This document shows, in pieces, positions 3,146 to 51,027 of a stretch of 64,000 bases of DNA; positions within the stretch are counted from its first letter, which is position 1, and each line of letters opens with the position of its first letter. The notes below the pieces were generated by a model that saw nothing but the letters and a program-made list of their open reading frames with translations, searched no databases and had not been told where the DNA came from. The stretch comes from Candidatus Woesearchaeota archaeon (GTDB lineage: Archaea; Nanobdellota; Nanobdellia; Pacearchaeales; UBA284). The translations under genes were made by a program, and so were the position numbers. The stretch covers positions 3,810 through 67,809 of the forward strand of contig CAZRGF010000004.1 of assembly GCA_964599615.1 (NCBI GenBank), read 5' to 3'.

Positions 3146-3269
3146 TCGACTTTGCCAGCTATAAGTGTAAAGTATTTTGATTTGATTGATTGTTTTCAGA
3201 GAGTTCTTAAGAAAATTAGGTAAAGAATGACAGTCTATTAATACGTCTCTCGCATTTGGCAAAGTTAAG
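3146..3269. mobile_element. MITE-like element family A, copy 1 (nested inside a family-B element)
   Basis: 5' gactttgccagctataagtgtaaa ... 3' tttggcaaagttaagt terminal inverted repeats. Confidence 0.55.
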
Positions 3270-3354
3270 TTAAATATGGAGCATAATCCTAAATACCTAG
3301 CAACTGCGCCTTCACTTTTCATTGACTTGTTTTTTACATCATAGACCACGGATT

Positions 3355-4476
3355 TCATTTGATAGCTTCCCTGTATATCCTTTTTAATTTTTCATGTCTT
3401 TCTTTTAAAGAGAATTTTCCCTCACTAGTCACCTTTATTCCATAATTGCTCATTTTTTTTCTTAAAGAATTGTTCTCAATCAATAGAGAAGTCTTTTTTA
3501 TCATCTCCTTTATCATCAACGGTTCCTGAGAGATATGTGGGATTGCCTCATCCCAGATTATCCTTGGTTTCTTTATCACAAATCCGTCTTTTTCATTTTC
3601 AACAATGTCTTTTCTGGCAAAACCATCTACTGTGACTATGGGCAAGCCAAAAGCCAATGCTTCGACTAAAACAAAACCAAAAGTATCTGAGAATCCAGGA
3701 TAGACAAAAATATCGCTTTTTGGATAGATTTCTTTCATTATCTTTTCTAAAGGCATTAGACTATGAAATTCTATTTTTTTGTTTTTTTCATATTTTTTTA
3801 AGAGATTTCCAGGAGTTTGAGAGAGAAAAATCGCCTTGACATTATCATACTTCTTTGTTAATGCATCTATCACAATAAGGGCTTGCTTTCCTCCTTTTTG
3901 ATGGAAGTATCTGCCAGAAAAAAACAAGTTTATTCCCTCGTGTTTTATTCTCTTTATTTTTGGGCTAGGGATTGCATAGGTTACAATCTCCGTCTTTTTC
4001 TCAATTTCTCTGTCTTTTAAGTTATTAAAAATTGTTTCTTTAGCAGAATTTGTCCAAGGCATTATCTTTTTGCAATAATCTCCTTTTAACAACTTTTTTA
4101 TCCTTTTTTTGCCAATAGCAGAGTAAGAGATAGGTCCGCTTGAGGCGAAATTCCAATAATGTTCTGTATCAACCACCCAAGGTTTTTTATTCAAGCTCAG
4201 ACAATGTGCGCAGTGTATTAGGTCACAATCTTTATTTTTTGTGTAGGTGATATTTGGGACTTTTGCAACTGCCAATATCTTCCTTAAACTTGTTTTTAAT
4301 GCAAGCATTCTTTTAAATGTTTTAGGAGAATTTATCCCCACAAATTTTTGTTTATTTGCGTTTATATAACTGATATTTTTTGGGGGATAGTTTAGCATAG
4401 AGTTGTAATAACTGCTGTCTGGAAATTTCCAGGGATATTGCAGATAAACTTTGATTTGTTTTTTATTTTCAACCAT
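3355..4476 (-). CDS. GT1/GT4-family glycosyltransferase
   Basis: C-terminal EALAFGLPIV...D motif typical of GT-B glycosyltransferases. Confidence 0.65.
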   Translation of the reverse strand: MVENKKQIKVYLQYPWKFPDSSYYNSMLNYPPKNISYINANKQKFVGINSPKTFKRMLALKTSLRKILAVAKVPNITYTKNKDCDLIHCAHCLSLNKKPWVVDTEHYWNFASSGPISYSAIGKKRIKKLLKGDYCKKIMPWTNSAKETIFNNLKDREIEKKTEIVTYAIPSPKIKRIKHEGINLFFSGRYFHQKGGKQALIVIDALTKKYDNVKAIFLSQTPGNLLKKYEKNKKIEFHSLMPLEKIMKEIYPKSDIFVYPGFSDTFGFVLVEALAFGLPIVTVDGFARKDIVENEKDGFVIKKPRIIWDEAIPHISQEPLMIKEMIKKTSLLIENNSLRKKMSNYGIKVTSEGKFSLKERHEKLKRIYREAIK

Positions 4477-5026
4477 TTTTTATCACCCTTATTTTGTATT
4501 CTATTTCACAAGCAGGAAAAATCCACGCATAAAATCTGCAATAAAAAGCCTGGCTTAGATTCAACAGAGGGTCAAAAAGCCAATTTAAGAATTTTAATCT
4601 TCCAACGGCAAAATGTATCCTTACTTTTTGCACTTTTAGATTAAGTTCATCATTTTTTTTAACTTCATGTGAATAATTGTTTTTGCCTTGAAAATAATTA
4701 AATGTAAAAGGTGTAAAAAATCTTACATGCGTAGGGTCATTGAATTGCCCCCAAGAAGAATAAAAAGGGACTTTAATCCACAAGATTCCATTATTCTTTG
4801 TTATCCGATGCATTTCCTCTAGTAAAGGAACTAAATTGATGATATGTTCCAAGGCATGAAATGCAATTATCATATCAAATTCTTCAGATTTAAATGGTAA
4901 TGGGGTTTTTTCCAGATTATGTACCATGTCTACACCAGGCAGTTTTGAAGAATCTAATCCTATAACCAGATTATCTTTTCCCGCATTATATTTGCTATTT
5001 CCACAACCAATATCTAAAATCTTCAT
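4469..5026 (-). CDS. class I SAM-dependent methyltransferase
   Basis: ILDIGCGNSKY motif I. Confidence 0.6.
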   Translation of the reverse strand: MKILDIGCGNSKYNAGKDNLVIGLDSSKLPGVDMVHNLEKTPLPFKSEEFDMIIAFHALEHIINLVPLLEEMHRITKNNGILWIKVPFYSSWGQFNDPTHVRFFTPFTFNYFQGKNNYSHEVKKNDELNLKVQKVRIHFAVGRLKFLNWLFDPLLNLSQAFYCRFYAWIFPACEIEYKIRVIKNG

Positions 5027-6147
5027 CTTAATATCTCCAAAATCCTTTTTGAGACCCCTTCTTTGCCATAAGGATTTTCAAAATTTTTGATTTCAATTTC
5101 ATTGTTCTCTATTTTTCTTATTATCTCTCTGGAGTATTTAACATTTAGTTTAGTTAAAAAATTTATCCCACTAGCTAATCCTTCTTGTCTTTCTGTTTTT
5201 TTCCTCAATAACAAGCAGGGTTTTTTGAATATCAGGCTTTCTTCTTGTATCGAGCCCCCATCAACAATAAGATACTTGCAGTTAGCTAGTAAGAAGATGA
5301 ATTTTTCATAGCTTTCCAAAGGAGTTAATGTCAGATTTTCCTGTTTTTTCAATTCTTCCATTAATCCATATTTTTCTAAAATCCGCCTAGTATTTTCATG
5401 CAACGGCCAGATTGCTTTGATATTGATGCTTTTTATTATCTCTACACATCTTTTCATCCTTTCTGGAGATTTCAGATTTTCGTGCCTATGCAGATTGATT
5501 AGGGCAAATTCTTCTTTCAGTTTTTTTAATTTTCCTTTTGATTCTTTTTTTGATTTTTCATAATTTATCATCGCAGAATCTAAGATTGTGTTTCCGACAT
5601 TGAAAATCTTTCCCCAGACAAAAAACCATCGCTCTTTTCTTAGGTTTCTTGCACTAAGCCCAGAAACAGCGAGCAATATATCTGAGAGCCTATCGGCAAC
5701 TTGTCTTACGATTTCTTCTGGAAAAGGTTCTGATAAAGAACCTGACCTTAAGCCAGATTCTAAATGGACGTTTTTCCATTTTTTAAAAGGATTTAATATC
5801 CAAGAAGAGCCAACAGCAGCAGAACCAGTGCTTATAGTATCCCCATGATAGACAACATATTTTGGCTTGATTCTCCTGATTGTTTTTCTTACCTTGAATA
5901 TCATTGATAAGTACCATTTCCAAGAACTCATTCCCTTATCTGAGCCTAATTTTGTTCCCTTCTCTGGTTCTTCACTTAAGACATAATCCGGTTTTTTGAT
6001 CTGAAAATTTTCACATGCTCTTCCAAGAGAATGCTGCCCAGTATGGATGAACCAGTAATCTTCTTTTCTTTCTTTTAATTCAAGCATCAAAGAAACACAT
6101 TTGATTAATTCAGCTTGAGTCCCAATAACAAAAGCGATTTTATTCAT
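5023..6147 (-). CDS. wecB: UDP-N-acetylglucosamine 2-epimerase (non-hydrolysing)
   Basis: N-terminal IAFVIGTQAELIK...HTGQH signature of UDP-GlcNAc 2-epimerases. Confidence 0.7.
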   Translation of the reverse strand: MNKIAFVIGTQAELIKCVSLMLELKERKEDYWFIHTGQHSLGRACENFQIKKPDYVLSEEPEKGTKLGSDKGMSSWKWYLSMIFKVRKTIRRIKPKYVVYHGDTISTGSAAVGSSWILNPFKKWKNVHLESGLRSGSLSEPFPEEIVRQVADRLSDILLAVSGLSARNLRKERWFFVWGKIFNVGNTILDSAMINYEKSKKESKGKLKKLKEEFALINLHRHENLKSPERMKRCVEIIKSINIKAIWPLHENTRRILEKYGLMEELKKQENLTLTPLESYEKFIFLLANCKYLIVDGGSIQEESLIFKKPCLLLRKKTERQEGLASGINFLTKLNVKYSREIIRKIENNEIEIKNFENPYGKEGVSKRILEILR

Positions 6148-6316
6148 AAAAATATCAATCTTTAATGATTTTTAAATTTATAGACTTGACTTTGCTAAGT
6201 CCCTGGCTATATGTGTAATAGTCTCCTTTTTGTTTATTTAAATCTCCCGAAACTCCAAAAACAGAACAACCAACAACAATAAAACATTATTAACACCTAT
6301 AGTTAACAAAGCCAGT

Positions 6317-7333
6317 TTATAGAATATTAAAGAACAAGTTGATTAAAGTGAATAAAATCAATATTAATTCAAACACCAATAACAAATAAACCACATCTTT
6401 TTCATAAGCTTTTCCCTTCATCTTCTTTAAAATCCTTAAGGCAATGTGTGTCAGGCTGTAGTTCTTCTTATATCTTAATTCTAAACTATTGTCCCTATTG
6501 GGGATGGCAAAATTTTCAGCCTTGAATTTTGATCTTAATTTTAAGAATCCTTCGAGTATAAATGGGATAAACAAGAAAAATGCGACCTTCTCCATATTTC
6601 CTAAGATAGCAAAACAACCAACCAGGGCCCCAAGACTGTATGTTAAAGAATCTCCTGGAAATACTTTTGCAGGGAATTTATTGAATATCCAAAATCCAAT
6701 TAATGCGCATATAATAATTCCTGCTATCAAAGCAAGCCACAATTGTCCGGTAGTCAAGGATACAATCCCTAAAGCTAAGAATATCAAGATTCCAAGCCCA
6801 GATTCAAGGCCATTAAATCCTGCTAGTAGATTGTAGCCATTTGTTGTTCCAACCAGAGCAAGCGGGACAATAACCAAAGGGTAGATTATGCCAAAATTGA
6901 CTGGCCCTATAAATGGCAGGCTCATTATTGAATGCCCTGCATTGATGACTATCAGGGGGATAGCTACGGGAATTGTAATCAATATTTTTTTCCAACCTGC
7001 AATACCCTTTTTCCAGCCAAGAATGTCGTCTATAAATCCTATAAAACAAGCAAAGATAAATGTAATCAATAAAGTCAGTATTTCAATGATCTGTGTATTT
7101 GAATTCAGGATAAAAGTCTTGAAAAAGAGATAAATCATCAAAGAAGCAACAATTGCAACAACCACCGCAATTCCACCTGCTTCTGCGACCATCTTTTTTT
7201 CATACTTGTTCATATCTTTGCCTACAAGTTGATTTGCACGAGCTAGTTTTATCCATTTTTTACAAAGAACAAAAGACACAAAAAAGCCTACTAAAAAAGT
7301 TACAATTATTGTTAGAATCTCCAACCATATCAT
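6317..7333 (-). CDS. UDP-GlcNAc:dolichyl-phosphate GlcNAc-1-phosphate transferase (MraY/WecA/AglH family)
   Basis: polytopic membrane protein with FIGFIDDILG motif characteristic of MraY/WecA-type transferases. Confidence 0.7.
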   Translation of the reverse strand: MIWLEILTIIVTFLVGFFVSFVLCKKWIKLARANQLVGKDMNKYEKKMVAEAGGIAVVVAIVASLMIYLFFKTFILNSNTQIIEILTLLITFIFACFIGFIDDILGWKKGIAGWKKILITIPVAIPLIVINAGHSIMSLPFIGPVNFGIIYPLVIVPLALVGTTNGYNLLAGFNGLESGLGILIFLALGIVSLTTGQLWLALIAGIIICALIGFWIFNKFPAKVFPGDSLTYSLGALVGCFAILGNMEKVAFFLFIPFILEGFLKLRSKFKAENFAIPNRDNSLELRYKKNYSLTHIALRILKKMKGKAYEKDVVYLLLVFELILILFTLINLFFNIL

Positions 7334-7334
7334 T

Positions 7335-10106
7335 TTATGTTCCTAAATAATCTAATTCACCCCATAATCCTTCTGGGTTAACTGTTTTTCGGTATTCTGG
7401 ATAATCAGTGATATTCTCTGGATAATTTACTTTCCAGATTTTTATAGGCCCTTGAAAGTCTCCAGCGATGACAAAGTCACCCACAGTTATATTGTAAACA
7501 TCTTTTAATTGTTTCACAAATAAAGAAGGTTCAGTATGGACTAATTCAAAATTTTCAGTCTCATTTAATAGATAAAGTTTGACAAATTCTGCATTAAGAG
7601 CTTTTTCGCTCAAGTATAATACAGCACCCATCTTGTTCACACCATAGTTATTCAGTGTTGGTATAAAATATAACATTGTAGACAGAGCATCTTCAGATGT
7701 TGTTAAAGTACGTCTCTTGTTGTCCAACCAAAGATATTTTACAGGGATTCTATATTGCTGGTTTTTATAGATGACAATAGCATCCAAACCATTTATCACC
7801 TGGGTATCTTTTTCAACAGTCATAATAAAAGCACCTATCCCTGCTTTTTGTGCTGGGAATAATTGTCCTTTCCATAATACATCTTGATCAAGCATTGTTC
7901 CTCCAGTGTAGACATACATTGTTTCATTCTTTGTTTCTTGTGTCTGTGAGTCAGCTAAAACAAAAGTAGAAATCCAGCTTAATCTGTCTTGTCCTGTTTT
8001 ATCTGAGCCGATGCTTGCGAAAGCAGAATATTTTCCAATATCACTTGAATCAATCAAATAATAAGACACATTATATGCTTTGCATAATTGCAGGGCTGTT
8101 TGCTCATGTTGTGCAGTCATTAGGTATCTTGCAGTGGTATGGTCCCAATAACCATTCCAATGCCCACCGTCTGTTACAGTTGGTCTTTCTCCCAAGGTCT
8201 GTAACCAATATCCATAATCCCACCAATGGACAAAGATAGAATCTTTTGGAGTTTCTGTTCTTACCCAGGACATTGCTTTTTGCCATTGGTTATAATAGGC
8301 ACTATTAACAGTATATTGCGCTTGTTGATATGTTGATTTTTCAAAATTCACAAAAGTTATGACCATCAAGACAGCTATTAACAAAACAATACAGAACAAC
8401 AAGACTTTGTATAAATTCTCTTTTGTTTTAAATGCATAATCTATAATCTTCACAGGTAAAAATGAAGAGAATATGATAAGGGCAGGGGAGATTATAAAAA
8501 ACAGTCTTATTGCTCCCCGCATAGAGATAATCATCCAAAATGAAAAAGCGATTATAAATAAATAAGAAAAATCAATTTTCTTGAAATCTTCTAGTGTTTT
8601 TTCATCTTTTTTGACATAAGCATAAACATACATTCCCAAGATGAATAAAACAAAGAGAATCAAGCCACCAAAGTATAATAAATCAGAAATAAAATTTTGC
8701 CCATTTAAGAAACTAGATGGAGATGTTCTTGAGAATATAAACGTAGCTAAGAAGATTATAAATATCACCATCAACCAGATTTTCTTTTTTTTATCAAAAT
8801 GTTTTATTGTCTCAAAGAATACTAACACAAGTCCAGCTAAGAAGAGCCAGAACAGCCAAGAGAAGCTTGCAATAGCTTGTGTAACATAGGGACTACTGTT
8901 TTCAGCAACAGTCAATCCAATTCTTCCTTCACCAAAAGGATGTAAAAGTCTTTCAGTTATCTGTGAAAAAGTTGAAGAAATAAAACCAGGGTTAATCAAC
9001 AATAAGAGGATAATCCCCAAAACAGCAGCTATGATAAGACTTATCAAGCCCTCAGGCAATTTTATCTTTTCTTTTATTTTTTTTAACTTAGTATTAAACA
9101 ATATCAAGTCTACTATTAAAATAAAGAAAATTATACACCCAAAACCAGTATCAGCAATTGAAATTAAGGTAGGAGTCAAACCCATTTTGATAATAGAAAA
9201 GATCAATGCAGGAATGATCCAACAAGCAAAGATGAGAAAATTTTTCTTCTTTTCTTTATTGAAGAAGAATATTAAAAAACTGGCTAATGAAAAAGTCATG
9301 AAAATATATCTGTAACCACCCCAAGTAAATACCATCAATCCAGTAAAAATTCCTGCAATTAAAGCAAAAGGAATCATCTTTTTGATTTTATCCTGTTTCC
9401 AGGCTAGTGCAATAAATAAAAAACCAAGCCAGAACCATAACATACCCAGACTTTCAATTTCAGGAATTCCTGCAACAGTCCTATGCAACATTTCAGGCAT
9501 TACAATATAAAAGGCACTTGCGAGTATAGCAATAATAGCAGATATCTTTTTAGACATCTTAAACGAAAAGATTACAAATATCAAGAAAAAGAAGGCGATT
9601 GTGCTCAAACTGAAGAATATGACTGGAGCGATTATTGCAGCGAATTCTACGCTGGCTATTGGGGGTTTTGTGAATAGGTTCAATATTTTGTAAACCCCGA
9701 CAATTGACCAAGGCATCAGGCTTTTTGTAGCATAATTCGTATTCCCTAAGGGAGCTTGGATCATAGGATCTGGATTTTTCAGAGTTCCGGCAACAATATC
9801 TTTTGCAAGCCTTAGATACAGAAAAGGATCAAGATCTGGTCCTAAAGTGTAATTTCCAGTAGTAGGGTCTATCAGTTTTGGGATATTTGGTGTTCTGAGA
9901 TAAACATTGAAGATGACTAATACTATCAGTAAAACAGCAATTAAAACCCCAAACCAATATTTTTTAAAAAAACCAGAGAAATCAGTATTTTTCTTATTAA
10001 TCTTTGGTTCGATTTTAGGAGTATCAACTACCGGTTTTTCTTCATGTTTCTCTTGTTTTATTTCATCTTCCTTTTTTGCAGAATTATCAATTATCTCTTC
10101 ATCCAT
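7335..10106 (-). CDS. aglB: archaeal oligosaccharyltransferase AglB (STT3 family)
   Basis: ~920 aa, many N-terminal TM helices, WWDYGYW motif (HWWDYGYWLQ). Confidence 0.9.
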   Translation of the reverse strand: MDEEIIDNSAKKEDEIKQEKHEEKPVVDTPKIEPKINKKNTDFSGFFKKYWFGVLIAVLLIVLVIFNVYLRTPNIPKLIDPTTGNYTLGPDLDPFLYLRLAKDIVAGTLKNPDPMIQAPLGNTNYATKSLMPWSIVGVYKILNLFTKPPIASVEFAAIIAPVIFFSLSTIAFFFLIFVIFSFKMSKKISAIIAILASAFYIVMPEMLHRTVAGIPEIESLGMLWFWLGFLFIALAWKQDKIKKMIPFALIAGIFTGLMVFTWGGYRYIFMTFSLASFLIFFFNKEKKKNFLIFACWIIPALIFSIIKMGLTPTLISIADTGFGCIIFFILIVDLILFNTKLKKIKEKIKLPEGLISLIIAAVLGIILLLLINPGFISSTFSQITERLLHPFGEGRIGLTVAENSSPYVTQAIASFSWLFWLFLAGLVLVFFETIKHFDKKKKIWLMVIFIIFLATFIFSRTSPSSFLNGQNFISDLLYFGGLILFVLFILGMYVYAYVKKDEKTLEDFKKIDFSYLFIIAFSFWMIISMRGAIRLFFIISPALIIFSSFLPVKIIDYAFKTKENLYKVLLFCIVLLIAVLMVITFVNFEKSTYQQAQYTVNSAYYNQWQKAMSWVRTETPKDSIFVHWWDYGYWLQTLGERPTVTDGGHWNGYWDHTTARYLMTAQHEQTALQLCKAYNVSYYLIDSSDIGKYSAFASIGSDKTGQDRLSWISTFVLADSQTQETKNETMYVYTGGTMLDQDVLWKGQLFPAQKAGIGAFIMTVEKDTQVINGLDAIVIYKNQQYRIPVKYLWLDNKRRTLTTSEDALSTMLYFIPTLNNYGVNKMGAVLYLSEKALNAEFVKLYLLNETENFELVHTEPSLFVKQLKDVYNITVGDFVIAGDFQGPIKIWKVNYPENITDYPEYRKTVNPEGLWGELDYLGT

Positions 10107-10112
10107 TTTTCA

Positions 10113-11444: not shown

Positions 11445-11479
11445 TTTAAGGTTTTTTTCTTATGATAGGGGATTATACT

Positions 11480-12406: not shown

Positions 12407-12423
12407 TTAAAACCCCCAGGAAT

Positions 12424-12560
12424 AGACTTTGCCAAATCTCCTGCTGTGTGCTTTGCGTGAATCATGACTAAGTGATTGTCATTTTTCAAAAAATCTTAAA
12501 AATTCAGTTAAAAAATAGGACAAAACCAGTTTTAACATTTAAAGAGGGCAAGGTCAAGTT
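12424..12560. mobile_element. MITE-like element family A, divergent copy
   Basis: 5' tagactttgccaaatctcc ... 3' gggcaaggtcaagttt. Confidence 0.4.
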
Positions 12561-13484: not shown

Positions 13485-13493
13485 GATATTAAA

Positions 13494-14159: not shown

Positions 14160-14226
14160 GTCCAATTTAGTTCTCGAAAACAATTTCAAAAAACTTGGGG
14201 ATGTAATACATACAGATGGTTTTCTA

Positions 14227-14358
14227 ACTTGACTTTGCCAAATGCGAGGTATGTGTTAATAGGGTATACTGTTTTATTTGTTTTTCTCGAAAATTCTCTT
14301 AAAATAGAAGATAAAAATCGAATTAAAATACTTTAACTTATATCTGGCAAAGTTAAGT
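14227..14358. mobile_element. MITE-like element family A copy
   Basis: 5' acttgactttgccaaatgcgagg ... 3' ctggcaaagttaagt. Confidence 0.55.
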
Positions 14359-14366
14359 TTCTAAGG

Positions 14367-18287: not shown

Positions 18288-18571
18288 TGTTAATTTATTT
18301 ATTAATGTTTAACTTTGTTTATTATCTTGCCTATTTAACAACCTTCTTGCTTTTTGGTTTAAAAACTTTGCCCATGCAATTCCTGCATTTTACACTGCCT
18401 TCGGTTATTTTCCTTGCTTCAGCCCTGACTTTTGTATGGCATCTTTTGCATACAAATATGTTTTTGAATAATCTGTTCTGTGCAGCTGCGATTTTTGTTG
18501 CCATTTTTGTATTGTTTTATTTTTTTAATGATTATTTAGGGTTATATTTTTTTATACAATTTATGCATAAC

Positions 18572-18627
18572 CCTTATAGCTGGTTGCATGCAACCAAATT
18601 TTGTTTGTTTTGCGCTTTGCTTTTCAT
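18572..18627. repeat. hairpin repeat family B copy (cttatagctgg-hairpin-ccaaa...gcgctttgcttttcat)
   Basis: aligns with 41910-41966, 44926-44990 and 60252-60317 (reverse complement). Confidence 0.6.
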
Positions 18628-18642: not shown

Positions 18643-19053
18643 TCACGCTAATCTTTTAATTATTTTTTTGCCGTCAACATTCCAGTATTCAACATTCCTG
18701 TTTTCTTGAGTTTCTTGGAATTCAGGGATAAGGTCTTGAGCAACAGGAATTTCTATTGTCTCAAAATTTTCCAAGTCCATAACACTTGCTGTTCCTTTGA
18801 ATTTGTCAAAACTCAAAAGTTGTGCCCTTCTTTTTTCAATCATCGGAACTTCATATCTTTCAGAACCTGGAACCGCGACAATCCTTTTCTTGTTATCAAC
18901 TATCCCAATTGCTTCAATTCTGCACTTGCTTGCGCCATGTTTCCCACTTTTGCTTATATCAATTGATTTTACAGAGCATGCAACACCATCTATAGGAATA
19001 GTATTTCCTACTTTTACATTACTTGCATCAATCCAATTTCCCATGTTAACCAA
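18643..19053 (-). CDS. eif5a: translation initiation factor 5A (aIF-5A)
   Basis: hypusine-loop motif SKSGKHGASKC; 136 aa. Confidence 0.85.
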   Translation of the reverse strand: MVNMGNWIDASNVKVGNTIPIDGVACSVKSIDISKSGKHGASKCRIEAIGIVDNKKRIVAVPGSERYEVPMIEKRRAQLLSFDKFKGTASVMDLENFETIEIPVAQDLIPEFQETQENRNVEYWNVDGKKIIKRLA

Positions 19054-19070
19054 AGAAAAATTTAATTTTT

Positions 19071-19133
19071 AAACCTTTCTGTAAAGAAAGGTTTACCTCT
19101 TTCCGAGGTTTCTTTCAGAAAGCTCGTTTAAAA
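19071..19133. repeat. 63-bp multi-hairpin element C copy 1 (18 nt upstream of aIF-5A start, minus orientation)
   Basis: exact reverse complement of 24167..24230. Confidence 0.7.
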
Positions 19134-19495: not shown

Positions 19496-19496
19496 C

Positions 19497-24123: not shown

Positions 24124-24166
24124 GGATATCACAGGTAGGATTCTTTAAATTCCATAGTCCAAACAT

Positions 24167-24230
24167 TTAAACGAGCTTTCTGAAAGAAACCTCGGAAAGA
24201 GGTAAACCTTTCTTTACAGAAAGGTTTAAA
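24167..24230. repeat. multi-hairpin element C copy 2 (24 nt upstream of the secE start, plus orientation)
   Basis: reverse complement of 19071..19133; internal hairpins cctc-ggaaa-gagg and aacctttc-tttaca-gaaaggtt. Confidence 0.7.
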
Positions 24231-24253
24231 AAACACTTTCTTATTAATTTATC

Positions 24254-24439
24254 ATGAATGTCTTAGTCAATACTAAACAATTTGTAGCCAAATGCACGAG
24301 AGTGTTTAAAGTAGCTAGAAAACCAACAAAACAAGAATTAAAGCAAGTTTCAAAAATTTCTGCTCTTGGATTGTTGATTATCGGTCTTTTAGGCTTTGCA
24401 ATAAGCATATTATTTACATTTCTCTGGGGCGTGATATAA
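24254..24439 (+). CDS. secE: protein translocase subunit SecE (Sec61 gamma)
   Basis: 61 aa with one C-terminal TM; conserved position immediately upstream of spt5/nusG. Confidence 0.6.
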   Translation: MNVLVNTKQFVAKCTRVFKVARKPTKQELKQVSKISALGLLIIGLLGFAISILFTFLWGVI

Positions 24440-38122: not shown

Positions 38123-38272
38123 ACTTGACTTTGCCAGAGATAAGTTTAATAACATGATCCTGATTTTTAGTTGGATTTTCTTTGGGTTTTTGAAATCCTA
38201 AAAAGATTTCTTATAAAAACAATTGCTACTAGTCATTATACATACATATATAAGAATTTGGCGAAGTCAGGT
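38123..38272. mobile_element. MITE-like element family A copy
   Basis: 5' acttgactttgccagagataagt ... 3' ttggcgaagtcaggt. Confidence 0.55.
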
Positions 38273-39576: not shown

Positions 39577-40000
39577 TTATTCTTTCTAGCTTGTTATTAT
39601 AAAAAACACTGTAACTTTTGGAAAAACAAGAAGGTAAATAAGTCCCTTGAACATTGCCTTCTTTTGCTTTGCAATATGTCCATAACTCGGTTTTTCCGAT
39701 TGTGAAGTTCTTCTCTTCACTAGGAAGTTGGAGTTTCATCAGCAAGAAAATATTTTTTTCATCAATGTAAAGACAGTTTTTTATTGTTTCTTGGTTAAAA
39801 TCATTTAGTTCCAAGATACCATTCCCAGTTAAACAGTCAACTGATTTTTCTGCAAGAGTTGCTGCTTCAATCTGCCTTATGTCATATGGTGTTGAGAACC
39901 TGAACCATACCACCCCAACAAAGACCCCGATAATCAATATTATCATTATAAACCTGTATACAAAAATCACCGAATATTCTGTTTGTGCTCTTTTGTTCAT
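39533..40000 (-). CDS. pilin-like protein with class-III-type signal (MNKRAQ-T...)
   Basis: same K-[KR]-A-Q signal subtype. Confidence 0.4.
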   Translation of the reverse strand: MNKRAQTEYSVIFVYRFIMIILIIGVFVGVVWFRFSTPYDIRQIEAATLAEKSVDCLTGNGILELNDFNQETIKNCLYIDEKNIFLLMKLQLPSEEKNFTIGKTELWTYCKAKEGNVQGTYLPSCFSKSYSVFYNNKLERINVFIAIDKNDKNVK

Positions 40001-40018
40001 TTAATAAATGGGGCTTTC

Positions 40019-40092
40019 CATCCTCCAACTTTAAGTGTTTGGTATAAGCATAACTCTAATAAACATATAGCAACTGCGCTGACGCTTTTCAT
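40019..40092. repeat. repeat family B-related element (catcctccaactttaagt ... tagcaactgcgctgacgcttttcat)
   Basis: same two end-blocks as 3126-3143 plus 3297-3321, here uninterrupted. Confidence 0.5.
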
Positions 40093-40126
40093 TAATGTGT
40101 TTTTCATGATATAGACGTTTTGAGTT

Positions 40127-40474: not shown

Positions 40475-40605
40475 TTCTTATACCTCTTTCAGATTTAACA
40501 GATAATATGACTTAATAAATTTTATTAGAAAACATTGATTATTACATCAGTATGTGTAAGGCATTATTTCTTAATTTTTCAGAAAAGCAGAGTGCAGTTA
40601 TTAGG

Positions 40606-40745
40606 TAACTTGATTTCGCTGGAGATAAGTGTAAATTATTTAGATTTTATTTTTGATTCTTGTTTTCGAAGAATTTTTGAAAAAGTTTAGAAGACTAGGG
40701 GCATAATATCCTGTAACATAATTCGCAGTGGCGAAGTCAAGTAGG
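40606..40745. mobile_element. MITE-like element family A copy
   Basis: 5' aacttgatttcgctggagataagtgtaaa ... 3' gtggcgaagtcaagt; both ends flanked by taggtaactt. Confidence 0.55.
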
Positions 40746-40799
40746 TAACTTAATTTATTAAGATTAGATTTCAACTTACAGGGAGATAAACTTTAAGGA

Positions 40800-41966: not shown

Positions 41967-41980
41967 TTAGTATTATCTAT

Positions 41981-43126: not shown

Positions 43127-43281
43127 CTTAAACATTAGAAAAAGAACAATATTATATTTAAATCTTCTCAATTAAGAATTTCCTATCTGTGTTGTGATAG
43201 TTCTCCTAATTATTTCTTGGATTTATCCTGAAAGTCGGAATCAATATGGTAGATTATAACACATATAGAAGTGATTTAAGA

Positions 43282-43482: not shown

Positions 43483-43870
43483 AATTTGGATTTTTCTCTG
43501 GGTCCTTGCAATCTTCTTCGTTTTTTAGCGTTACTGTTTTTCCAGCTGCATCCTGGTAAGTATAAACTGCCTTATACCTCACATCTGGCAGATTGTAGCA
43601 ATAGAACAATTCTTCTGTCTGCGTTTTAGAATTTCTTATAGCCACCTGTTCACCACAATATTGCTGCAAGGTGTAAAATTTTTCACATTTATCTTTAGCA
43701 GAAGACAAAACATCGCTCCCATAAACTCCCTGGATTCCAAGTATCTTTTCCCATAAACTTTTTAAGGTTCCAGAAAAGAACAAACCTAATATTACTAGCA
43801 CCATTATCGCTAGGACTAGAATAATGATTGTGGTTATGTTAATCTCTACCCCTTTTTTATTTTGCACCAT
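43472..43870 (-). CDS. pilin-like protein (MVQNKKG-VEINITTIIILVL...)
   Basis: class-III-like N-terminus; Cys-containing C-terminal domain. Confidence 0.45.
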   Translation of the reverse strand: MVQNKKGVEINITTIIILVLAIMVLVILGLFFSGTLKSLWEKILGIQGVYGSDVLSSAKDKCEKFYTLQQYCGEQVAIRNSKTQTEELFYCYNLPDVRYKAVYTYQDAAGKTVTLKNEEDCKDPEKNPNYVP

Positions 43871-43922
43871 TTTTTAATACTAATATAGATTTTTTTTCTT
43901 TTTAAAACTTTCTACTAATCAA

Positions 43923-44894: not shown

Positions 44895-44925
44895 GTTTTA
44901 AATTGTTTGGGGCAATAAGCTAATA

Positions 44926-44990
44926 CCCCTTATAGCTGGCTGTAACAGCAGCCAAACCTTTTATTTAGCAACTGCGCTTCGCTTTTCTCC
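44926..44990. repeat. repeat family B copy (ccccttatagctgg-ctgtaacagcagcc-aaacctttt...gcgcttcgcttttc)
   Basis: aligns with 18572-18627 and 41910-41966; hairpin stem shows a compensatory change. Confidence 0.6.
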
Positions 44991-45023
44991 TCCTTTTCGA
45001 ACTTATTTATAATCTTAATCATT

Positions 45024-45233
45024 TTATATTACACCACCCAATTTGAGTAAGTTTATTAATACTATCCACCAATTGACACCCATATTAACCCAATCCTTTC
45101 TTAGGAGGTTATAGACTGCTAAGAATACTCCTGCTAGTAACCATAGAATTCTTAACCATTGGTCATTAAAGAGAACTGAGCTGACTAATAGAATCATTCC
45201 TATAATCGCTAATAAATTTGTTATCCATTTCAT
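45024..45233 (-). CDS. small 2-TM membrane protein
   Basis: 69 aa, hydrophobic. Confidence 0.3.
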   Translation of the reverse strand: MKWITNLLAIIGMILLVSSVLFNDQWLRILWLLAGVFLAVYNLLRKDWVNMGVNWWIVLINLLKLGGVI

Positions 45234-45235
45234 TT

Positions 45236-45391
45236 TTATCTCCCAAATCTGAGAAGTTCTTTCAATTTATCTCCCAGATTGATTCCAGAATTTTTAAAAT
45301 AGACGATTGCGATGATGATTATCGCTAATAATACAATTCCGACAATCCACCAGACAATCTCATTCCAGACTACTCCTCTTTTGTTTCCCAT
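45236..45391 (-). CDS. unlisted 51-aa pilin-like ORF (MGNKRG-VVWNEIVWWIVGIVLLAIIII...)
   Basis: translated by hand from the minus strand; N-K-R-G class-III-like signal; below the ORF-track size cut-off. Confidence 0.3.
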   Translation of the reverse strand: MGNKRGVVWNEIVWWIVGIVLLAIIIIAIVYFKNSGINLGDKLKELLRFGR

Positions 45392-45441
45392 CTTCTTCTA
45401 GAAAACAAAACAATTATTTAAATCTTGTCAAATAGAATTTC

Positions 45442-45948
45442 CTAAAGCGCACCTACCCTTTTTCCTTCTTCATAGCCTTCTTTTAATAGTTTTTCTCCAA
45501 TATCTTTTGCTCTTTCAAATCTTGCCCTTTCTCTTGGTAACATTCCAGGAATTTCCTCTACTCTAGCATCCAGAAGATAATCTCCTTCACTATAACCTTT
45601 TATATAAATATTGTCCCCTTCATCTACCTTTAGATTACGATTATTATCATAAACACTAATATATTTTGGCTCGTTGAAAAAACCTAACAAAGTGTAATTA
45701 GTGATATTTGCTTCAGTAAGCCCCCCCTTATAATAAGAAAACTCTTTTGTTACGCCGGCAATTGGCCAAAAAATTGGTCTTTTGCTTATGACATAGCTAT
45801 TATCTGCTGTAAAGTATTGTACCCTCTCAACTTTTCTTCCAGTAAAAAAATTATGTCCTATCATTACTGAGTCAAATACTCTCAAAAGACCAGATAGTCC
45901 AATAACAACTATTCCTGCTATGCCTATTGCTCCTGTTAATTTGCTCAT
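45442..45948 (-). CDS. membrane-anchored hypothetical protein (first gene downstream of the TadC-like gene)
   Basis: N-terminal TM (GAIGIAGIVVIGLSGLL), 168 aa. Confidence 0.4.
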   Translation of the reverse strand: MSKLTGAIGIAGIVVIGLSGLLRVFDSVMIGHNFFTGRKVERVQYFTADNSYVISKRPIFWPIAGVTKEFSYYKGGLTEANITNYTLLGFFNEPKYISVYDNNRNLKVDEGDNIYIKGYSEGDYLLDARVEEIPGMLPRERARFERAKDIGEKLLKEGYEEGKRVGAL

Positions 45949-46013
45949 CCAATAAATTATCTTTCGGGGTTTATAAATCTTTCTTTTGTTGTTATTATAA
46001 AGTTATACTAAAA

Positions 46014-48209
46014 TCACTGCGTTACAATTCCGCCGATAGCAACAGAAGCTAAAGCAGCTAATGCTACTATCGCGACAATAGCTGTTATGAAATAGAGCAT
46101 CATTCCTGTTGATAGATTTTTATAGATCTCATTCTTCTCTCCTAGTTTGTCTTCTCCATTTTCTATAGTAACTAGAGTAATAGTCAGAATAAATATGACT
46201 TCAACAATATAGATTCCTACAGCAACTTGGAGCCAGTAAGGGGGAATCATCTTAGAGATGTCAAACATAGAGACAATAGAACCAATGCCCCCCATGCCTA
46301 TTCCAGAGTCAAGATTAGATCCTGCATCAAGCATAGATTTTAATTTTCCCAAGATCCCGGTTATCATAGAAGCTAAGCCGACGACAATAGCTGAAAGCAA
46401 AGGTGCTAAAAAAGTCATATTGCTTTTCATGCTGCTGGTTATCTCAGACAATAGGTCTTTGAGTCTTTCATTGACAGTATGGATATTCTTAACATATACG
46501 CTTATTGACATCAATGCTTTAGCAGCAATTCCTAGACCTTTTTTAACAGCTTCAATCATTATCTGCATCGATGTTCTTAATAATTCCGAAGGATAATAAT
46601 TAATAGCTCCTCTGCCAGAACTGAAAATAGCGTCTTCAATAGACATGCCTGCTTGCTGGATATTCGTATTAACTAAAGAAAAAAATCCAGCAGAAGCTGT
46701 GCCCTTGGAGCTTTCAGCAACTCTTCCGAAAACCATCTCAGCAGGAACACCATCAGCTAATCTGTTTCCTAACTGAAATATGCTTGAAGAGAATTCTGCT
46801 TCAAGTTTTTTAGTTTGTTCTCTTGTTTTTACAAGTTTATCTGTCTTGAACTTATAAGACAGGATGAAAAATATTGCAATTGCCAAGGGAACAAATAAAG
46901 ATAGTATTAAAGCAGTTGTTCCAAAAGGCCCGACAGTAGCTCCTTTTTCATCAATTATAAAATCAAATAACTTGTTATTCTGTCCTAAGAATCCTAATCC
47001 AAGTTCATTGAAAGTATAATCTTTATTCAATCCCATTGACTCAGCCAACCCGAATTGGAACAAGAATGGAAGAATTCCGAGGATAAAAAAAGGCAGGGCA
47101 ATTAAGAACGCTTTGGTATAATGGCTTTTATCTGCATAATCTTTATAATTTTTATTTTTTTCAAGCAATTCTGTCTCTCCAAATCCGCCTGGTCTTTTAG
47201 CAAGAACATTATTAGTCATATAGAATATTGCAAAAGGAATGACAATATCATACATAACCGCAACATGATACCATCTGACTGCTCCTCCCAATAATGTGGA
47301 AGCTAAAGGCATTAAAGCCAATCCCAAAGTAGGGAGCACAATTCCCAACATATAAACATTAGTTATTGGAGAAGCCACATCATGGCTAAAGTGCAGCATT
47401 TTTTCATAAACCCCATCCAGAATGATTTGAAGAGATTTTTCCAGAGTAGCTAACCTCCTCTCTTCAATTGGTTCATACAAAGAAGATTCAATCATATGGA
47501 AAGATTCAACAAATTCTGGAGCATCTGCTCGCCATTTTTCCAGATAAGCATCTAAAGCATCTTTGATAGTAGGGCATTTTGCTGTTTCAACATCCCAAAA
47601 TATTTTCTTGAAATCTAAAGATAATGGCGGTTGTAGATGCTGGGAAGCAAATCTTATTGCTCCTTCAAGGTTAGAAGTATGCCTCATATAGACGACAATA
47701 TATAGAATAGCAGGGACCATCTGACTAGAAGCTTTTAATTTCCATTTCTGGGCAATTCTTGCAGGCATAGAACCAATGTAATAATAAAAGAAGAAACTTG
47801 TAACTGCTAATAAACCGAAAATCATAGCAATCTCGCCGCTTAATTCTCCAGTCATCATGAAAATAGCGCCTGCAATCAAGAATGACAAGAAAAATGCAAC
47901 TATTAAAGTGAACCAGGCAAGTCCTGAAGATTCATTTGCTTTAACATCAAGATGGCTAGTGTTCAGATCATTCTGGATTTTTTCTTCTTCCTTTGGTTTT
48001 AACTTTACTTTAAAACTTTTCCCTATATTCTTGCAAGCTTTTTCATACCATCCAAGACTTCTCAGAGTTTCTTGCTTAAATTGGTCATAATCTTTAGAAT
48101 AATCAACAGGAAGATCTTTTCCCAATTGATTCGCCATTTTCATCTCAAATTTTCTGAGAATATCTTTGGTGTCTATATTACTTTTTCTATTACTTGGGAT
48201 AGGGACCAT
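46014..48209 (-). CDS. polytopic membrane protein, probable type IV pilus/archaellum platform protein (TadC/FlaJ/PilC-like)
   Basis: 731 aa with many TM helices and cytoplasmic loops; heads an array of pilin-like genes. Confidence 0.5.
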   Translation of the reverse strand: MVPIPSNRKSNIDTKDILRKFEMKMANQLGKDLPVDYSKDYDQFKQETLRSLGWYEKACKNIGKSFKVKLKPKEEEKIQNDLNTSHLDVKANESSGLAWFTLIVAFFLSFLIAGAIFMMTGELSGEIAMIFGLLAVTSFFFYYYIGSMPARIAQKWKLKASSQMVPAILYIVVYMRHTSNLEGAIRFASQHLQPPLSLDFKKIFWDVETAKCPTIKDALDAYLEKWRADAPEFVESFHMIESSLYEPIEERRLATLEKSLQIILDGVYEKMLHFSHDVASPITNVYMLGIVLPTLGLALMPLASTLLGGAVRWYHVAVMYDIVIPFAIFYMTNNVLAKRPGGFGETELLEKNKNYKDYADKSHYTKAFLIALPFFILGILPFLFQFGLAESMGLNKDYTFNELGLGFLGQNNKLFDFIIDEKGATVGPFGTTALILSLFVPLAIAIFFILSYKFKTDKLVKTREQTKKLEAEFSSSIFQLGNRLADGVPAEMVFGRVAESSKGTASAGFFSLVNTNIQQAGMSIEDAIFSSGRGAINYYPSELLRTSMQIMIEAVKKGLGIAAKALMSISVYVKNIHTVNERLKDLLSEITSSMKSNMTFLAPLLSAIVVGLASMITGILGKLKSMLDAGSNLDSGIGMGGIGSIVSMFDISKMIPPYWLQVAVGIYIVEVIFILTITLVTIENGEDKLGEKNEIYKNLSTGMMLYFITAIVAIVALAALASVAIGGIVTQ

Positions 48210-48355
48210 TATTACCTCTTTTATTTTCTATTTTTAGGAAAACAACTTATAAAAACATTTCTAAATCAATAAAACGAAATATATACTTGAGAAGCAAAAG
48301 GTATTTAAACATCATACTTTTAAATCTTTCATAATAAATAAAAAAAGAATGTAAA

Positions 48356-48634
48356 ATGTTAAAAATTATGAATATAAGTGATGTTGTTGGAATGAAGCTG
48401 TTTACAGATTCTGGCGACTTTCTTGGAGTTATAGAAGAAGCCAACCTTGTCGACAATAAGCTTGATAGTTGGCGTGTTAAGGTTGGAAGAGATTCTACCC
48501 TAGCCCCATTATTAAGTGGCGCAAGAGGTTTGATAATTCCACACCAATATGTTAAGGCATTTGGTGAAGTTGTTATAATCAGTAAGGCAGCTGTACCAAT
48601 AAAAGAGGATATGTCTGAAGAGTTCGTAGCATAA
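48356..48634 (+). CDS. PRC-barrel domain protein
   Basis: VVGMKLFTDSGDFLGVIEEANLVDNKLDSWRV pattern typical of PRC-barrel proteins; preferred over the overlapping antisense ORF 48247..48678. Confidence 0.5.
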   Translation: MLKIMNISDVVGMKLFTDSGDFLGVIEEANLVDNKLDSWRVKVGRDSTLAPLLSGARGLIIPHQYVKAFGEVVIISKAAVPIKEDMSEEFVA

Positions 48635-48644
48635 ACATCACAAA

Positions 48645-49130
48645 ATGGTCGATACCGTACAAACAACAATATTTGCAAATCCGTTCTTTGTCTATTTATT
48701 ACTACCTTTCTTGCTTGTTTTTGTCATAGTCTTTTCAATTCTTGAAAAAGCAAAGATTCTTGGAGAAAACAAGAAAGCAGCAGATGTGATTGTGGCGATG
48801 GTTATCGCTTTTATATTTGTGGGGGTTTCTTCTGTTGTTGACATTACTTTAAAATTCATCCCAATTATCAGCCTTTTCTTGGTTTTGATTTTAGGTTTCT
48901 TGTTATTATTTGGTTTTGCAGGCATAAAAGTAGAGGGGAACAAAGGATTGCAGATTGCAATCGGCATTGTCCTGGGAGTAGCTTTCATAGGGGTAGTATT
49001 ATGGGCAACAGGTGTTTGGAGTAAAATCATATTTTCAAGTGTAACACTTCAGTATATCTTTTTGTTTTTACTTTTTGGAGGAGCCTTAGCATTGATTGTC
49101 GCAACAGCTCCTAAGCAAAAATCAGCATAG
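48645..49130 (+). CDS. small 4-TM membrane protein, paralog 1 of 3
   Basis: conserved VFSILEKAKILGENKKA block after TM1, shared with 49615 and 50204 ORFs. Confidence 0.4.
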   Translation: MVDTVQTTIFANPFFVYLLLPFLLVFVIVFSILEKAKILGENKKAADVIVAMVIAFIFVGVSSVVDITLKFIPIISLFLVLILGFLLLFGFAGIKVEGNKGLQIAIGIVLGVAFIGVVLWATGVWSKIIFSSVTLQYIFLFLLFGGALALIVATAPKQKSA

Positions 49131-49157
49131 TTAATAATTAAATTTCATGGAGGAAAA

Positions 49158-49481
49158 ATGGGTTATATAGAACTTGAAAAAAGTATTGATGCACACACAG
49201 GCCCGCTAAAAAAAGCTAGGGCAGGAAAAATAGACAATCCTTACAAATTCCTAGAAGATACAGAAAAAGCACTTGATAATGATTATGGGAAACTTGTTTC
49301 ATCAGGATTTGATGTTAAAGTTAAAAACAAACTTCGAGGAAAAATCCTTTCTGGAGTAGAAAGATTAAGGATACTTGCTCTTAAATATACTCCTGAACGA
49401 ACAGGAGATCGTGAAACATATGAAGAGATGGCAACTCGCCTTGCACTTAAATCAGAAGAGCTTGCTAAAATGGATAAATAA
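49158..49481 (+). CDS. hypothetical soluble protein
   Basis: 107 aa ORF between paralogs. Confidence 0.35.
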   Translation: MGYIELEKSIDAHTGPLKKARAGKIDNPYKFLEDTEKALDNDYGKLVSSGFDVKVKNKLRGKILSGVERLRILALKYTPERTGDRETYEEMATRLALKSEELAKMDK

Positions 49482-49614
49482 TTTTTGGTATATTTCTAAA
49501 TAAATGCTTTTTTGTTTACATCCCTATCTTCAATTAATTTAATAAAAAATCGAAAGATATAAAAAGCATTTATTCTTTTCTCTAGAATAAAAGAGGAAAC
49601 AGTAAAAGAGAAAA

Positions 49615-50166
49615 ATGGCAGATGGAGTTGGAGCAGTTTTCGGCGGTGGATTTTATCAACTGATAAATCAATGGCAAAGTTTCGGTGTATTCACTGTATT
49701 GTTGCCTTTAATCTTGATTTTTGCAGTTGTCTTTGCGATTCTAGAAAAAATTAATATCTTGAATAATAGAGGAGTTCATCTAGTCATCGCCTTGGCTATT
49801 GGATTTTTTACCGTCTCTAATCCATATATTTCTTCATTTTTTATGCCCTTTTTCTCAAACCTGGCAATAGGGATTGTCATTGTCCTTGCACTAACTATTC
49901 TAATCGGACTTGCGATAAAACCCGATGATGATAAATCAATTAAGTGGATTTTTGGTATTACTGGATTTGTAGTCTTCATTGTTATTCTAGGTAGAACAGG
50001 AGTTTTCAATTATTTATTAGGAGACAACATCGGATTTTGGATAAGTCAAAATTCATCCTGGGTTGTCTTGTTTGTCATACTAGCGATTTTAGTTTTGGGA
50101 GTGATAATGGGATCAAGAGGAGAAGGCAATTCTTGGTTGGATGTACTCGCTAAACCAAGAAAATAA
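49615..50166 (+). CDS. small 4-TM membrane protein, paralog 2 of 3
   Basis: VFAILEKINILNNRGVH block. Confidence 0.4.
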   Translation: MADGVGAVFGGGFYQLINQWQSFGVFTVLLPLILIFAVVFAILEKINILNNRGVHLVIALAIGFFTVSNPYISSFFMPFFSNLAIGIVIVLALTILIGLAIKPDDDKSIKWIFGITGFVVFIVILGRTGVFNYLLGDNIGFWISQNSSWVVLFVILAILVLGVIMGSRGEGNSWLDVLAKPRK

Positions 50167-50203
50167 ATTAAATAATAATTTAAAAAATAGATAAAAATAA
50201 AAA

Positions 50204-50698
50204 ATGGTAACTGCTATTGATATGTCTGGATTAGGGACATTCATGCCTATCTTTGCATTTATTCTTGTCTTTACAGTTTGTTATGCCCTGTTAGCTAAGA
50301 CAAAAGTTTTAGGAGAACACAAATTCGTCCATATATTCGTAAGTTTCTGCATTGCAATTATCTTTATCATCTCAGCCAATGCAATCGAGTATGTAAAAGT
50401 CACAACACCTTTCTTTGCAGCTTTTATCATAAGCCTTCTGTTTATTATGCTGATTGTAGGCTTATACAAGGGAAAAGGGGTAGATGAATTCTTTAAAGGA
50501 AATGGCTTTGGGTGGTTGATTGTTATTGTTTTGATAATTATATTTGTATTCTCAGCATTGTTTATCTTTGCCCCATTAATTAATCAGTATATGGCTGGCC
50601 CAAAACAATTTTTGCTTCAGCCGCAGATTCTAGGAGTTTTGATTCTATTGGCTGTCACAGCTTTCACAGCTTGGCTTTTATCTAAGAAACAAGGCTGA
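50204..50698 (+). CDS. small 4-TM membrane protein, paralog 3 of 3
   Basis: CYALLAKTKVLGEHKFVH block. Confidence 0.4.
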   Translation: MVTAIDMSGLGTFMPIFAFILVFTVCYALLAKTKVLGEHKFVHIFVSFCIAIIFIISANAIEYVKVTTPFFAAFIISLLFIMLIVGLYKGKGVDEFFKGNGFGWLIVIVLIIIFVFSALFIFAPLINQYMAGPKQFLLQPQILGVLILLAVTAFTAWLLSKKQG

Positions 50699-50746
50699 AT
50701 CTATTTTAAGTTTATAAGTAATTATTACTTTTCTTAGTTCTCATTA

Positions 50747-50886
50747 ACTTGACTTTGCCATCTATAGGTTTAAGGGTAAATTATCTGGATTTGATTCTTG
50801 ATTTTTGTTTTCGAAGAAGTTTCTGAAAATTTAGAACTAACTGTACATAATCCATTGCAGCATAGCCCGCATTGGCAAAGTTAAAC
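50747..50886. mobile_element. MITE-like element family A copy (first of a tandem pair)
   Basis: 5' aacttgactttgccatctatagg ... 3' cccgcattggcaaagttaaac. Confidence 0.55.
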
Positions 50887-50892
50887 ATTCTT

Positions 50893-51027
50893 ACTTGACT
50901 TCGCCAGACATAAGTGTAAAATATTTTATTCTTAATGTTCGTAGTTTTTCTTTGAAGAAATCTTAAAGAAATCAAGAATCCCCTTGCAGAATTGACTATC
51001 AATTATCCCGCATTGGCGAAGTCAAGT
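50893..51027. mobile_element. MITE-like element family A copy (second of the tandem pair)
   Basis: 5' acttgacttcgccagacataagtgtaaa ... 3' cccgcattggcgaagtcaagt. Confidence 0.55.

Follow-up and report, generated by a model that had tools for sequence, protein, structure and literature searches.

We analyzed a 64-kb stretch of contig CAZRGF010000004.1 (assembly GCA_964599615.1, Candidatus Woesearchaeota archaeon), which is referred to in its full length as the window. It has a G+C content of 33%, and the Pfam domains of its proteins identify a prefoldin, an aIF-2B-family protein, RPA, FtsZ, SRP54, and FtsY. SecY was assigned through the orthologous gene on contig L135, and RadA and YdjM through syntenic genes on contig L139 (numbers with an L denote the other loci compared); the window also carries an N-glycosylation/glycosyltransferase cluster. 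Because the core proteins are archaeal, and because the aIF-2B-family protein has its nearest named relatives in metagenome-assembled genomes (MAGs) of Candidatus Pacearchaeota and Woesearchaeota, the host is an uncultivated DPANN archaeon. Dispersed between these genes is a short non-coding element bounded by terminal inverted repeats (TIRs), which we consider very probably to be a non-autonomous DNA transposon, i.e., a miniature inverted-repeat transposable element (MITE), that is old and is decaying in this genome.

An intergenic element with 14-bp inverted termini

Each copy was oriented by its asymmetric interior, ACTTGACTTTGCCAG-NN-ATAAGTGTAAA ... CTCGCATTTGGCAAAGTCAAGT, with ACTTGACTTTGCCAG-NN-ATAAGTGTAAA taken as the 5' end. 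The window holds eight copies of 127-150 bp, seven of them clear and one degenerate over its full length (Table 1), five on the plus strand and three on the minus strand, at a density of 8 per 64 kb, or approximately 125 per Mb. The original prediction, made from the same DNA, had counted eight copies plus a fragment and had listed seven of the copies. These seven are real and lie within a few bases of where they had been placed; they align across their whole length, with the family hidden Markov model (HMM) covering model positions 1-136 in each. While the count of eight copies stands, the supposed fragment at 6184-6200 turned out to be the 3' TIR of the degenerate copy e8, and the inversion of three of the eight copies had been missed. 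The motifs that had been quoted (the termini, ATAAGTGTAAA, GATTTGATT..TTTTCGAAGAA, and CGCATTGGC) are those of the family consensus. As also proposed, the element is confined to intergenic DNA, all eight copies being located between open reading frames (ORFs) of at least 100 aa. They occupy tandem, convergent, and divergent spacers, their orientation relative to the neighboring genes is not fixed, and their mean pairwise identity is 54%.

The ends of the element form a 14-bp TIR, ACTTRACTTYGCCA, of which 12 of the 14 positions are complementary in at least 40 of 43 copies of the family. With up to two mismatches allowed, a 12-mer of the terminus occurs 26 times in the window, compared with 9.8 ± 3.1 times in shuffled sequences, and the two-ended pattern GACTTYGCCA-N95-125-TGGCRAAGTYA finds five distinct window copies (seven strand matches), compared with none in 100 shuffles. 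Since both the terminus count and the two-ended pattern exceed the shuffles, chance is excluded.

The same element is found well beyond the window. A metagenome scan with the pattern ACTTRACTTYGCCA-N95-125-TGGCRAAGTYAR returned 34 loci, nearly all from the Joint Genome Institute (JGI) metagenomes Ga0268276 and Ga0268280; together with the window these yield 51 non-redundant copies, in related DPANN (Woese-/Pacearchaeota-like) contigs. Further members were found in the Woesearchaeota MAG GCA_964500015.1 (L089, L135) and in Ga0315282 (L104). Genome contigs were scanned with a loose two-ended pattern; among the matches listed nearly all were chance bacterial hits, and the useful ones were L048 and L089, both from Woesearchaeota MAGs. 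The family was not found in scans of viral contigs or in BLAST searches against plasmids and phages, and a literature search for the terminus sequence returned unrelated primers only. As far as could be checked by that literature search and by the plasmid and phage BLAST, neither the family nor its 14-bp terminus, 5-bp duplication, and arrays have been described before.

Across the family, unit size ranges from 107 to 150 bp, ORFs running through the units are chance ORFs only, and 49 of the 51 non-redundant copies are clear of any ORF of 120 aa or more. Information content peaks at both termini and in the left 30 nt, and is lowest in a module of approximately 35 nt (positions 78-112) that comes in a handful of discrete types. 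The metagenome copies have a mean identity of 66%, with pairs reaching 96%.

Identical 14-bp inverted termini were also observed around unrelated interiors, at L122 91-243, L116 3809-3950, L105 204-332, and L048 6487-6612; the sources are other metagenomes and a Woesearchaeota MAG (UBA10107). If the last base of L122 is read as flank, this locus is bordered by a 5-bp repeat, CTGCA. One TIR with unrelated interiors is expected if a transposase recognizes the TIR, and the pattern of these sequences suggests that several MITE families may be served by one type of transposase.

Table 1. Copies of the element and associated features, by position in the window unless a locus is named (nhmmer scores refer to the family HMM).
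Feature	Position	Strand	Description
e1	3144..3270	+	127 nt, "127-type"; 5' tip variant TATCGAC; nhmmer 96 bits; between GT2 and GT1 genes; 94% identity to L131 4094-4220
e8	6184..6317	-	degenerate full-length copy; nhmmer E=6e-6 over model positions 7-135
e8 target duplication	6179-6183 and 6318-6322	+	TATAG; 5 bp, exact
e2	12421..12559	-	diverged; nhmmer 38.8 bits; divergent spacer between SpoIIM-like gene and aIF-2B-family gene
e3	14227..14358	-	nhmmer 81.6 bits; between convergent HAD and prefoldin genes
e3 target duplication	14222-14226 and 14359-14363	+	TTCTA; 5 bp, exact
e4	38123..38272	+	150 nt; interior diverged; nhmmer 40.4 bits; fits the two-ended pattern
e5	40608..40742	+	nhmmer 81.7 bits
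e5 target duplication	40603-40607 and 40743-40747		AGGTA; 5 bp, exact
Putative TIR-tip remnant	40748..40763	+	ACTTAATTTATTAAGA; immediately 3' of the right duplication of e5; sequence read directly
e6	50747..50886	+	140 nt; left unit of tandem pair; 3' tip variant AAAC; nhmmer 93.2 bits
Head-to-tail junction spacer	50887..50892	+	ATTCTT; 6 nt
e7	50893..51027	+	135 nt; right unit of tandem pair; perfect 14-bp TIR; nhmmer 82.2 bits
B block, window	3099-3143 + 3271-3346, and 39991-40116		
B block, relatives	L131 5547-5618; L137 4666-4728; L127 131-202; L129 8638-8712; L125 9271-9345; L100 4396-4439		

Target duplications and terminal pairing

We compared the two flanks of 29 solitary copies with each other, using 5000 permutations of the right flanks among copies as the reference. 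Exact 5-bp matches were found in 4 of the 29 (e3, e5, e8, and L123), against a permutation mean of 0.35, and 5-bp flanks with at most one mismatch in 9, against a mean of 2.5; neither value was reached in any permutation. Anchored flanks of 2, 3, 4, 6, 7, or 8 bp showed no enrichment in the same copies. A duplication of a single fixed length is the signature of staggered-cut transposition. Within the window, the exact duplication is kept in three of the eight copies (e3, e5, e8), and no recognizable duplication flanks e4. The copy at 40606 (e5) had been described as flanked on both sides by a possible target-site duplication, taggtaactt. A duplication is indeed present there, and its length is not 10 bp but 5 bp (AGGTA): the repeat appeared longer because the ACTT following the right AGGTA belongs to an adjoining sequence that we interpret as a TIR-tip remnant (40748-40763). 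The length of the duplication also excludes an origin from TA-duplicating elements (IS630-type, Tc1-mariner; Correia- or RUP-like), as identity over 2 bp was observed in 4 copies where 5.7 were expected, and the exact duplications are of 5 bp.

Inverted ends may also pair in RNA, and the copies could be structured small-RNA genes, with their 5' and 3' ends joined in a stem of 12-16 bp, that were multiplied by duplication or recombination. Single copies do fold with a long terminal stem, with z-scores down to -6.5 in e7, where the terminal stem is responsible for the value; the left half is conserved better than neutral decay alone might suggest; and two copies in the alignment of seven window copies carry a UA-to-CG double change in the stem that looks compensatory. 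This change was lost in the set of 43 copies and is a sampling effect, because the TIR arms in that set vary independently of one another: the states at the polymorphic TIR positions 5 (G/A) and 10 (T/C) are independent between the arms (Fisher p = 0.06 and 0.55, respectively), and non-pairing combinations (C.A or A.C) occur in 9-28% of the copies, whichever strand is read. For the 43 copies, RNAalifold predicted the terminal stem alone on both strands and no conserved internal helix was found, and no copy matched a covariance model of Rfam 15 at gathering score or at E<=1. Furthermore, an RNA-gene model does not predict the 5-bp duplication of the flanks, and the promoter-like motif of the genome, AAAG(A/G)TTTATAAA, is not associated with the units and does not precede them. 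We therefore give the small-RNA explanation very little credence: considering that the TIRs do not covary, that no internal structure is conserved, and that Rfam gives no match, the element behaves as transposase-recognized DNA rather than as an RNA gene. Its behavior is that of DNA whose ends are recognized by a protein for which R is acceptable at position 5 and Y at position 10.

The promoter-like motif differs from the termini, which are not generic promoter or terminator sequence. It recurs approximately 25-35 nt upstream of many start codons (e.g., 23841, 33193, 30910(-), 45982(-), and 20493(-)) and is probably the promoter of the host, consisting of a B recognition element (BRE) and a TATA box; such a promoter implies leaderless or short-leader mRNAs.

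Arrays, mosaics, and associated repeats

The two copies at 50747-51027, predicted as a tandem pair, do stand head to tail (e6/e7), and head-to-tail arrays of 2-4 units are common in the family (e6/e7, L131, L120, L125, L101/L124, L112/L130, L099/L121, and L129). As neighbors in the arrays are of different subtypes, the arrays are not simple tandem duplications. The junction AAAC-ATTCTA-ACTTGAC recurs in L131, L120, L125, L101/L124, and L112/L130, with the spacer being TTTCTA in L099/L121, and in this junction (...GTCAAAC-ATTCTA-ACTTGAC...) the left unit invariably ends in AAAC, not AAGT. A second recurrent junction reads ...GTTAAGT-ATCTAAG-AATTAAC.... Two explanations fit the arrays, together with the mosaics and remnants described below: insertion beside the ends of resident copies, or dimers that move as units and then exchange modules. 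The outer flanks of the e6/e7 pair (CATTA and CAATA, matching at 4 of 5 positions) weakly favor the movement of dimers.

Individual units can be mosaics as well. The left half of L112_2562 is 86% identical to L109 and its variable module 56%, whereas the values against L103 are 75% and 97%; likewise, L120_4635 is 89% and 51% identical to L098 in these two parts, and 71% and 83% identical to L125_9426. Remnants consisting of a TIR tip only are found beside full copies in the window (40748-40763), at L126 1993-2015, and at L135 ~3434-3500.

Tandem arrays would also be compatible with palindromes of the type of the repetitive extragenic palindromes (REPs) and bacterial interspersed mosaic elements (BIMEs), or of the PATE type, that are moved as single-stranded DNA by a HUH tyrosine transposase (RAYT, or TnpA of IS200/IS605). 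Transposases of this kind recognize hairpins together with a short target such as TTAC, and the REPs of BIMEs, which are linked to RAYTs, are 20-40 nt long, contain GTAG, and occur in alternating orientation. Where two units of an array meet, the 3' TIR of the first pairs with the 5' TIR of the second in a 12-bp, short-looped hairpin; the minus strand of the unit has a conserved TTTAC beside the foot of the big hairpin; and in two copies on related contigs an IS200/IS605-like end is inserted exactly at TTTAC. However, HUH/Y1 transposition (IS200/IS605, REP) is not known to duplicate its target, and our copies show an enriched 5-bp duplication; such a mechanism (IS200/IS605 or RAYT) is therefore unlikely. 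In addition, the inverted repeats stand at the very ends and are not subterminal hairpins, the units of the arrays are direct repeats and do not alternate as in BIMEs, and a unit of ~130 bp is far larger than a REP. Taken together, we see hardly any room for an explanation of this kind.

Several other repeats were observed around the copies. An identical repeat of at least 120 bp stands at three contig ends (L106 14593-14712, L108 3144-3263, and L114 1-119), with a hairpin GCTACAGAT-TAAA-ATCTGTAGC approximately 16 nt from its end; it adjoins TTTAC|AC each time, in two cases inside the conserved GTGTAAA of two different MITE subtypes. It resembles an IS200/IS605-type left end, and the element would use the TTAC of the MITE as its target. 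The motif AGCTATAAG(T/G)GT, which is the subterminal motif of the MITE, also occurs after a hairpin GGTTG-N4-CAACC at 60285-60320 (+), where it continues with AAA, and at 18570-18609 (-); at these two sites the hairpin stands in place of the TIR.

A second dispersed intergenic repeat, which we call the B block, is ~70-120 nt long with the core TAGCAACTGCGCTGTCGCTTTTCAT (Table 1). In the window copies and several others it continues, on the minus strand, into a ribosome-binding site and ATG (GGAGGATGG), and it may be a leader, an upstream ORF, or another small element; a search of Rfam with the B block returned nothing. Copy e1 sits inside one B block, while the block at 39991-40116 and several others are without a MITE. 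The block at 39991-40116 was considered as a clean empty site for e1 and rejected, as its flanks are too diverged and contain TIR-tip-like sequence. The e1 copy together with ~55 nt of its right flank (window 3271-3323, L131 4221-4273) is 94% identical between the window and L131, and the flanking proteins are dissimilar, which hints at recombination or transfer of a small e1 block independent of the surrounding genes.

Two further repeats lie elsewhere in the window. A pair of 91-nt inverted repeats (19042-19132 and 24166-24256; 89% complementary, with a core of ~65 nt) encloses 5 kb in which an FKBP-type isomerase and FtsZ are encoded; the repeat holds a hairpin AAACCTTTCT-GTAA-AGAAAGGTTT and a second hairpin, and has no Rfam match. 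A run of CTTCTTTTTTCTCTTC-like direct repeats (54667-54923) in the 5' part of the FtsY-type gene (53786-54985, minus strand) would encode a charged, low-complexity N-terminal region of that protein.

Counterparts in relatives, age, and significance

Contig L135 is syntenic with the window at ~76% protein identity. At 9811-9941 it carries a copy in the e2 spacer in the same orientation (E=2e-12), and in the e8 spacer an internally deleted remnant with both TIRs; at e1, its GT2 and GT1 genes overlap, so that neither spacer nor element is present. On inspection by eye, the e2 spacer of L137 shows a highly degraded trace (TTTACACTTAT and CATTTTGGAAAGC); the absence of e2 from L137, for which nhmmer gave no match, was withdrawn because the alignment reveals this trace. 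L138 has a degenerate copy in the HAD-prefoldin (e3) spacer that may or may not correspond to e3 in position, and in the more distant, syntenic L139 the spacers of e5 (38 bp) and e4 (62 bp) are both without an element. Sites of the e1 type hold one or two elements of different subtypes, depending on the contig. At least two and probably three window copies have counterparts in the same spacer of relatives at ~75-80% protein identity. Because the relatives show position-matched copies, remnants, and absences, the family was resident before these lineages split, and its copies have been both gained and lost; in the window genome, it is decaying. Given the mean identity of 54%, the retention of exact duplications in three of the eight copies, and the counterparts in the spacers of relatives, the family in this genome is old and probably no longer mobile.

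Persistence in the same spacers at this protein identity, in genomes that are otherwise compact, would also be in line with selection, for instance if the ends were paired binding sites for a host protein, either as a regulatory or architectural palindrome or as a domesticated MITE that is no longer, or never was, mobile. Conservation is highest in the termini and the left half, and e2 fills a divergent promoter spacer in which it abuts a promoter-like motif. Against this, position-matched copies show decay of one or both TIRs (e2 compared with L135 and L137; e8), as would be expected without selection, and neither position nor orientation relative to genes is consistent. The target duplications demonstrate arrival of the copies by transposition, which is compatible with later domestication and does not require it. 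We regard selected binding sites as an improbable explanation. Two other candidates were rejected. Integron attC sites are imperfect inverted repeats 3' of each cassette, in one orientation and next to an integrase, whereas our units have core genes as neighbors (SecY, FtsZ, SRP54, RadA, prefoldin), point in either direction, and also form tandems without genes; an origin of replication was rejected on context.

We therefore return to the non-autonomous DNA transposon. The copies display the structural hallmarks of a MITE that we tested: a small non-coding unit, a 14-bp TIR, dispersed intergenic copies in both orientations, a 5-bp target-site duplication, at least three orthologous spacers in relatives that lack the element, and variable copy number at one type of site. 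The MITE interpretation of the original prediction is thereby supported. In the mechanism that we propose, a transposase encoded elsewhere would bind both inverted 14-bp termini (ACTTRACTTYGCCA) and move the 127-150 bp unit into AT-rich intergenic DNA with a 5-bp staggered cut, as suggested by the duplication, and repair of this cut would leave the 5-bp direct duplication that is observed. Insertion beside the end of a resident copy, or the movement of dimers, could then give rise to the head-to-tail arrays, while exchange of segments between copies by recombination would account for the mosaic subfamilies found. Decay would proceed by point mutation and by interior deletion between the inverted ends, a likely route to the remnants seen here.

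A number of observations weigh against this interpretation. As predicted, the window yielded no transposase (none of the 30 proteins scanned has a transposase domain in Pfam), nor an autonomous element; the proposed search for a transposase with matching termini found none in the window or in ~330 kb of related DNA, where TIR pairs at long range or at the distance of an insertion sequence (IS) were absent as well, and none of the 273 ORFs of at least 150 codons in the window and related loci was multi-copy. That the element is non-autonomous is thus what we infer, the partner transposase not having been found. A 3.5-kb interval between TIR-like sites in L116 was considered as a transposase locus and rejected, as its translations, by inspection, are glycosyltransferase-like membrane proteins. 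No recognizable duplication is present in 20 of the 29 solitary copies, and no clean filled/empty pair with identical flanks was found among the close strains compared: L133, the one relative that is very close, does not differ from the window, and L133 and L132 were discarded as empty-site tests because they are the same genome as the window (100% identity). Finally, the recurrence of array junctions and the bias toward the same orientation are unlike independent random insertions. The family might also be more than a decaying relic: a perhaps new archaeal transposase that targets the flanks of resident ends could mobilize it and would build ordered arrays of different subtypes with fixed junctions, or these streamlined genomes could have co-opted arrays and old copies as an archaeal counterpart of BIMEs, serving as protein-binding, insulator, or terminator modules. 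We consider these possibilities unlikely, and very probably the family is an old, decaying MITE.

A large 2024 survey with a catalog of "cMITEs" in DPANN genomes (PMC11602168) places these genomes among the MITE-richest of the archaea, including a Woesearchaeal genome with 105 per Mb; the density found here (~125 per Mb) is of the same order. Like prokaryotic MITEs and cMITEs, our family consists of many intergenic copies of ~130 bp that have TIRs and a short target-site duplication and lack an ORF; heterogeneous head-to-tail arrays joined by a fixed junction, by contrast, are unusual for MITEs. The Correia elements of Neisseria (CREE/NEMIS) are intergenic, TIR-bounded units of 100-155 bp, with subfamilies that differ by internal segments and with the potential to form a long hairpin when transcribed, all of which our element shares; they have a TA duplication and TIRs of ~26 bp, in contrast to the 5-bp duplication, 14-bp TIR, and archaeal host described here, and there is no sequence similarity. 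The SM1-SM4 elements of Sulfolobus and the MITEs of haloarchaea, which are archaeal non-autonomous TIR elements as well, are reportedly 80-350 bp long and mobilized in trans by IS transposases. For these families partner IS elements with matching TIRs have been identified, whereas for ours no partner IS was found; the host here is a DPANN archaeon, and the sequences are not related. Enterobacterial repetitive intergenic consensus (ERIC) sequences are comparable in structure and behavior. The BIMEs of Enterobacteria are intergenic mosaic arrays of REPs with a small set of spacer types (PMC2817692), and our arrays resemble them as intergenic mosaics of palindromic units with few spacer types, but consist of ~130-nt units in direct repeats, with target duplications. 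The kind of element, a prokaryotic MITE, is thus already known, and this family is probably new.

DPANN genomes are tiny and gene-dense; in them, these repeats account for 1-2% of the DNA and have stayed in the same spacers from one species to another. The copies break metagenome assemblies, numerous related contigs terminating at a copy or close to one; they also create spurious ORFs and mark recombination sites. For annotators, the eight intergenic blocks of the window are one transposon family rather than eight separate features or small-RNA genes, and the defined 14-bp terminus with its 5-bp duplication provides a handle for locating the partner transposase in complete bins.

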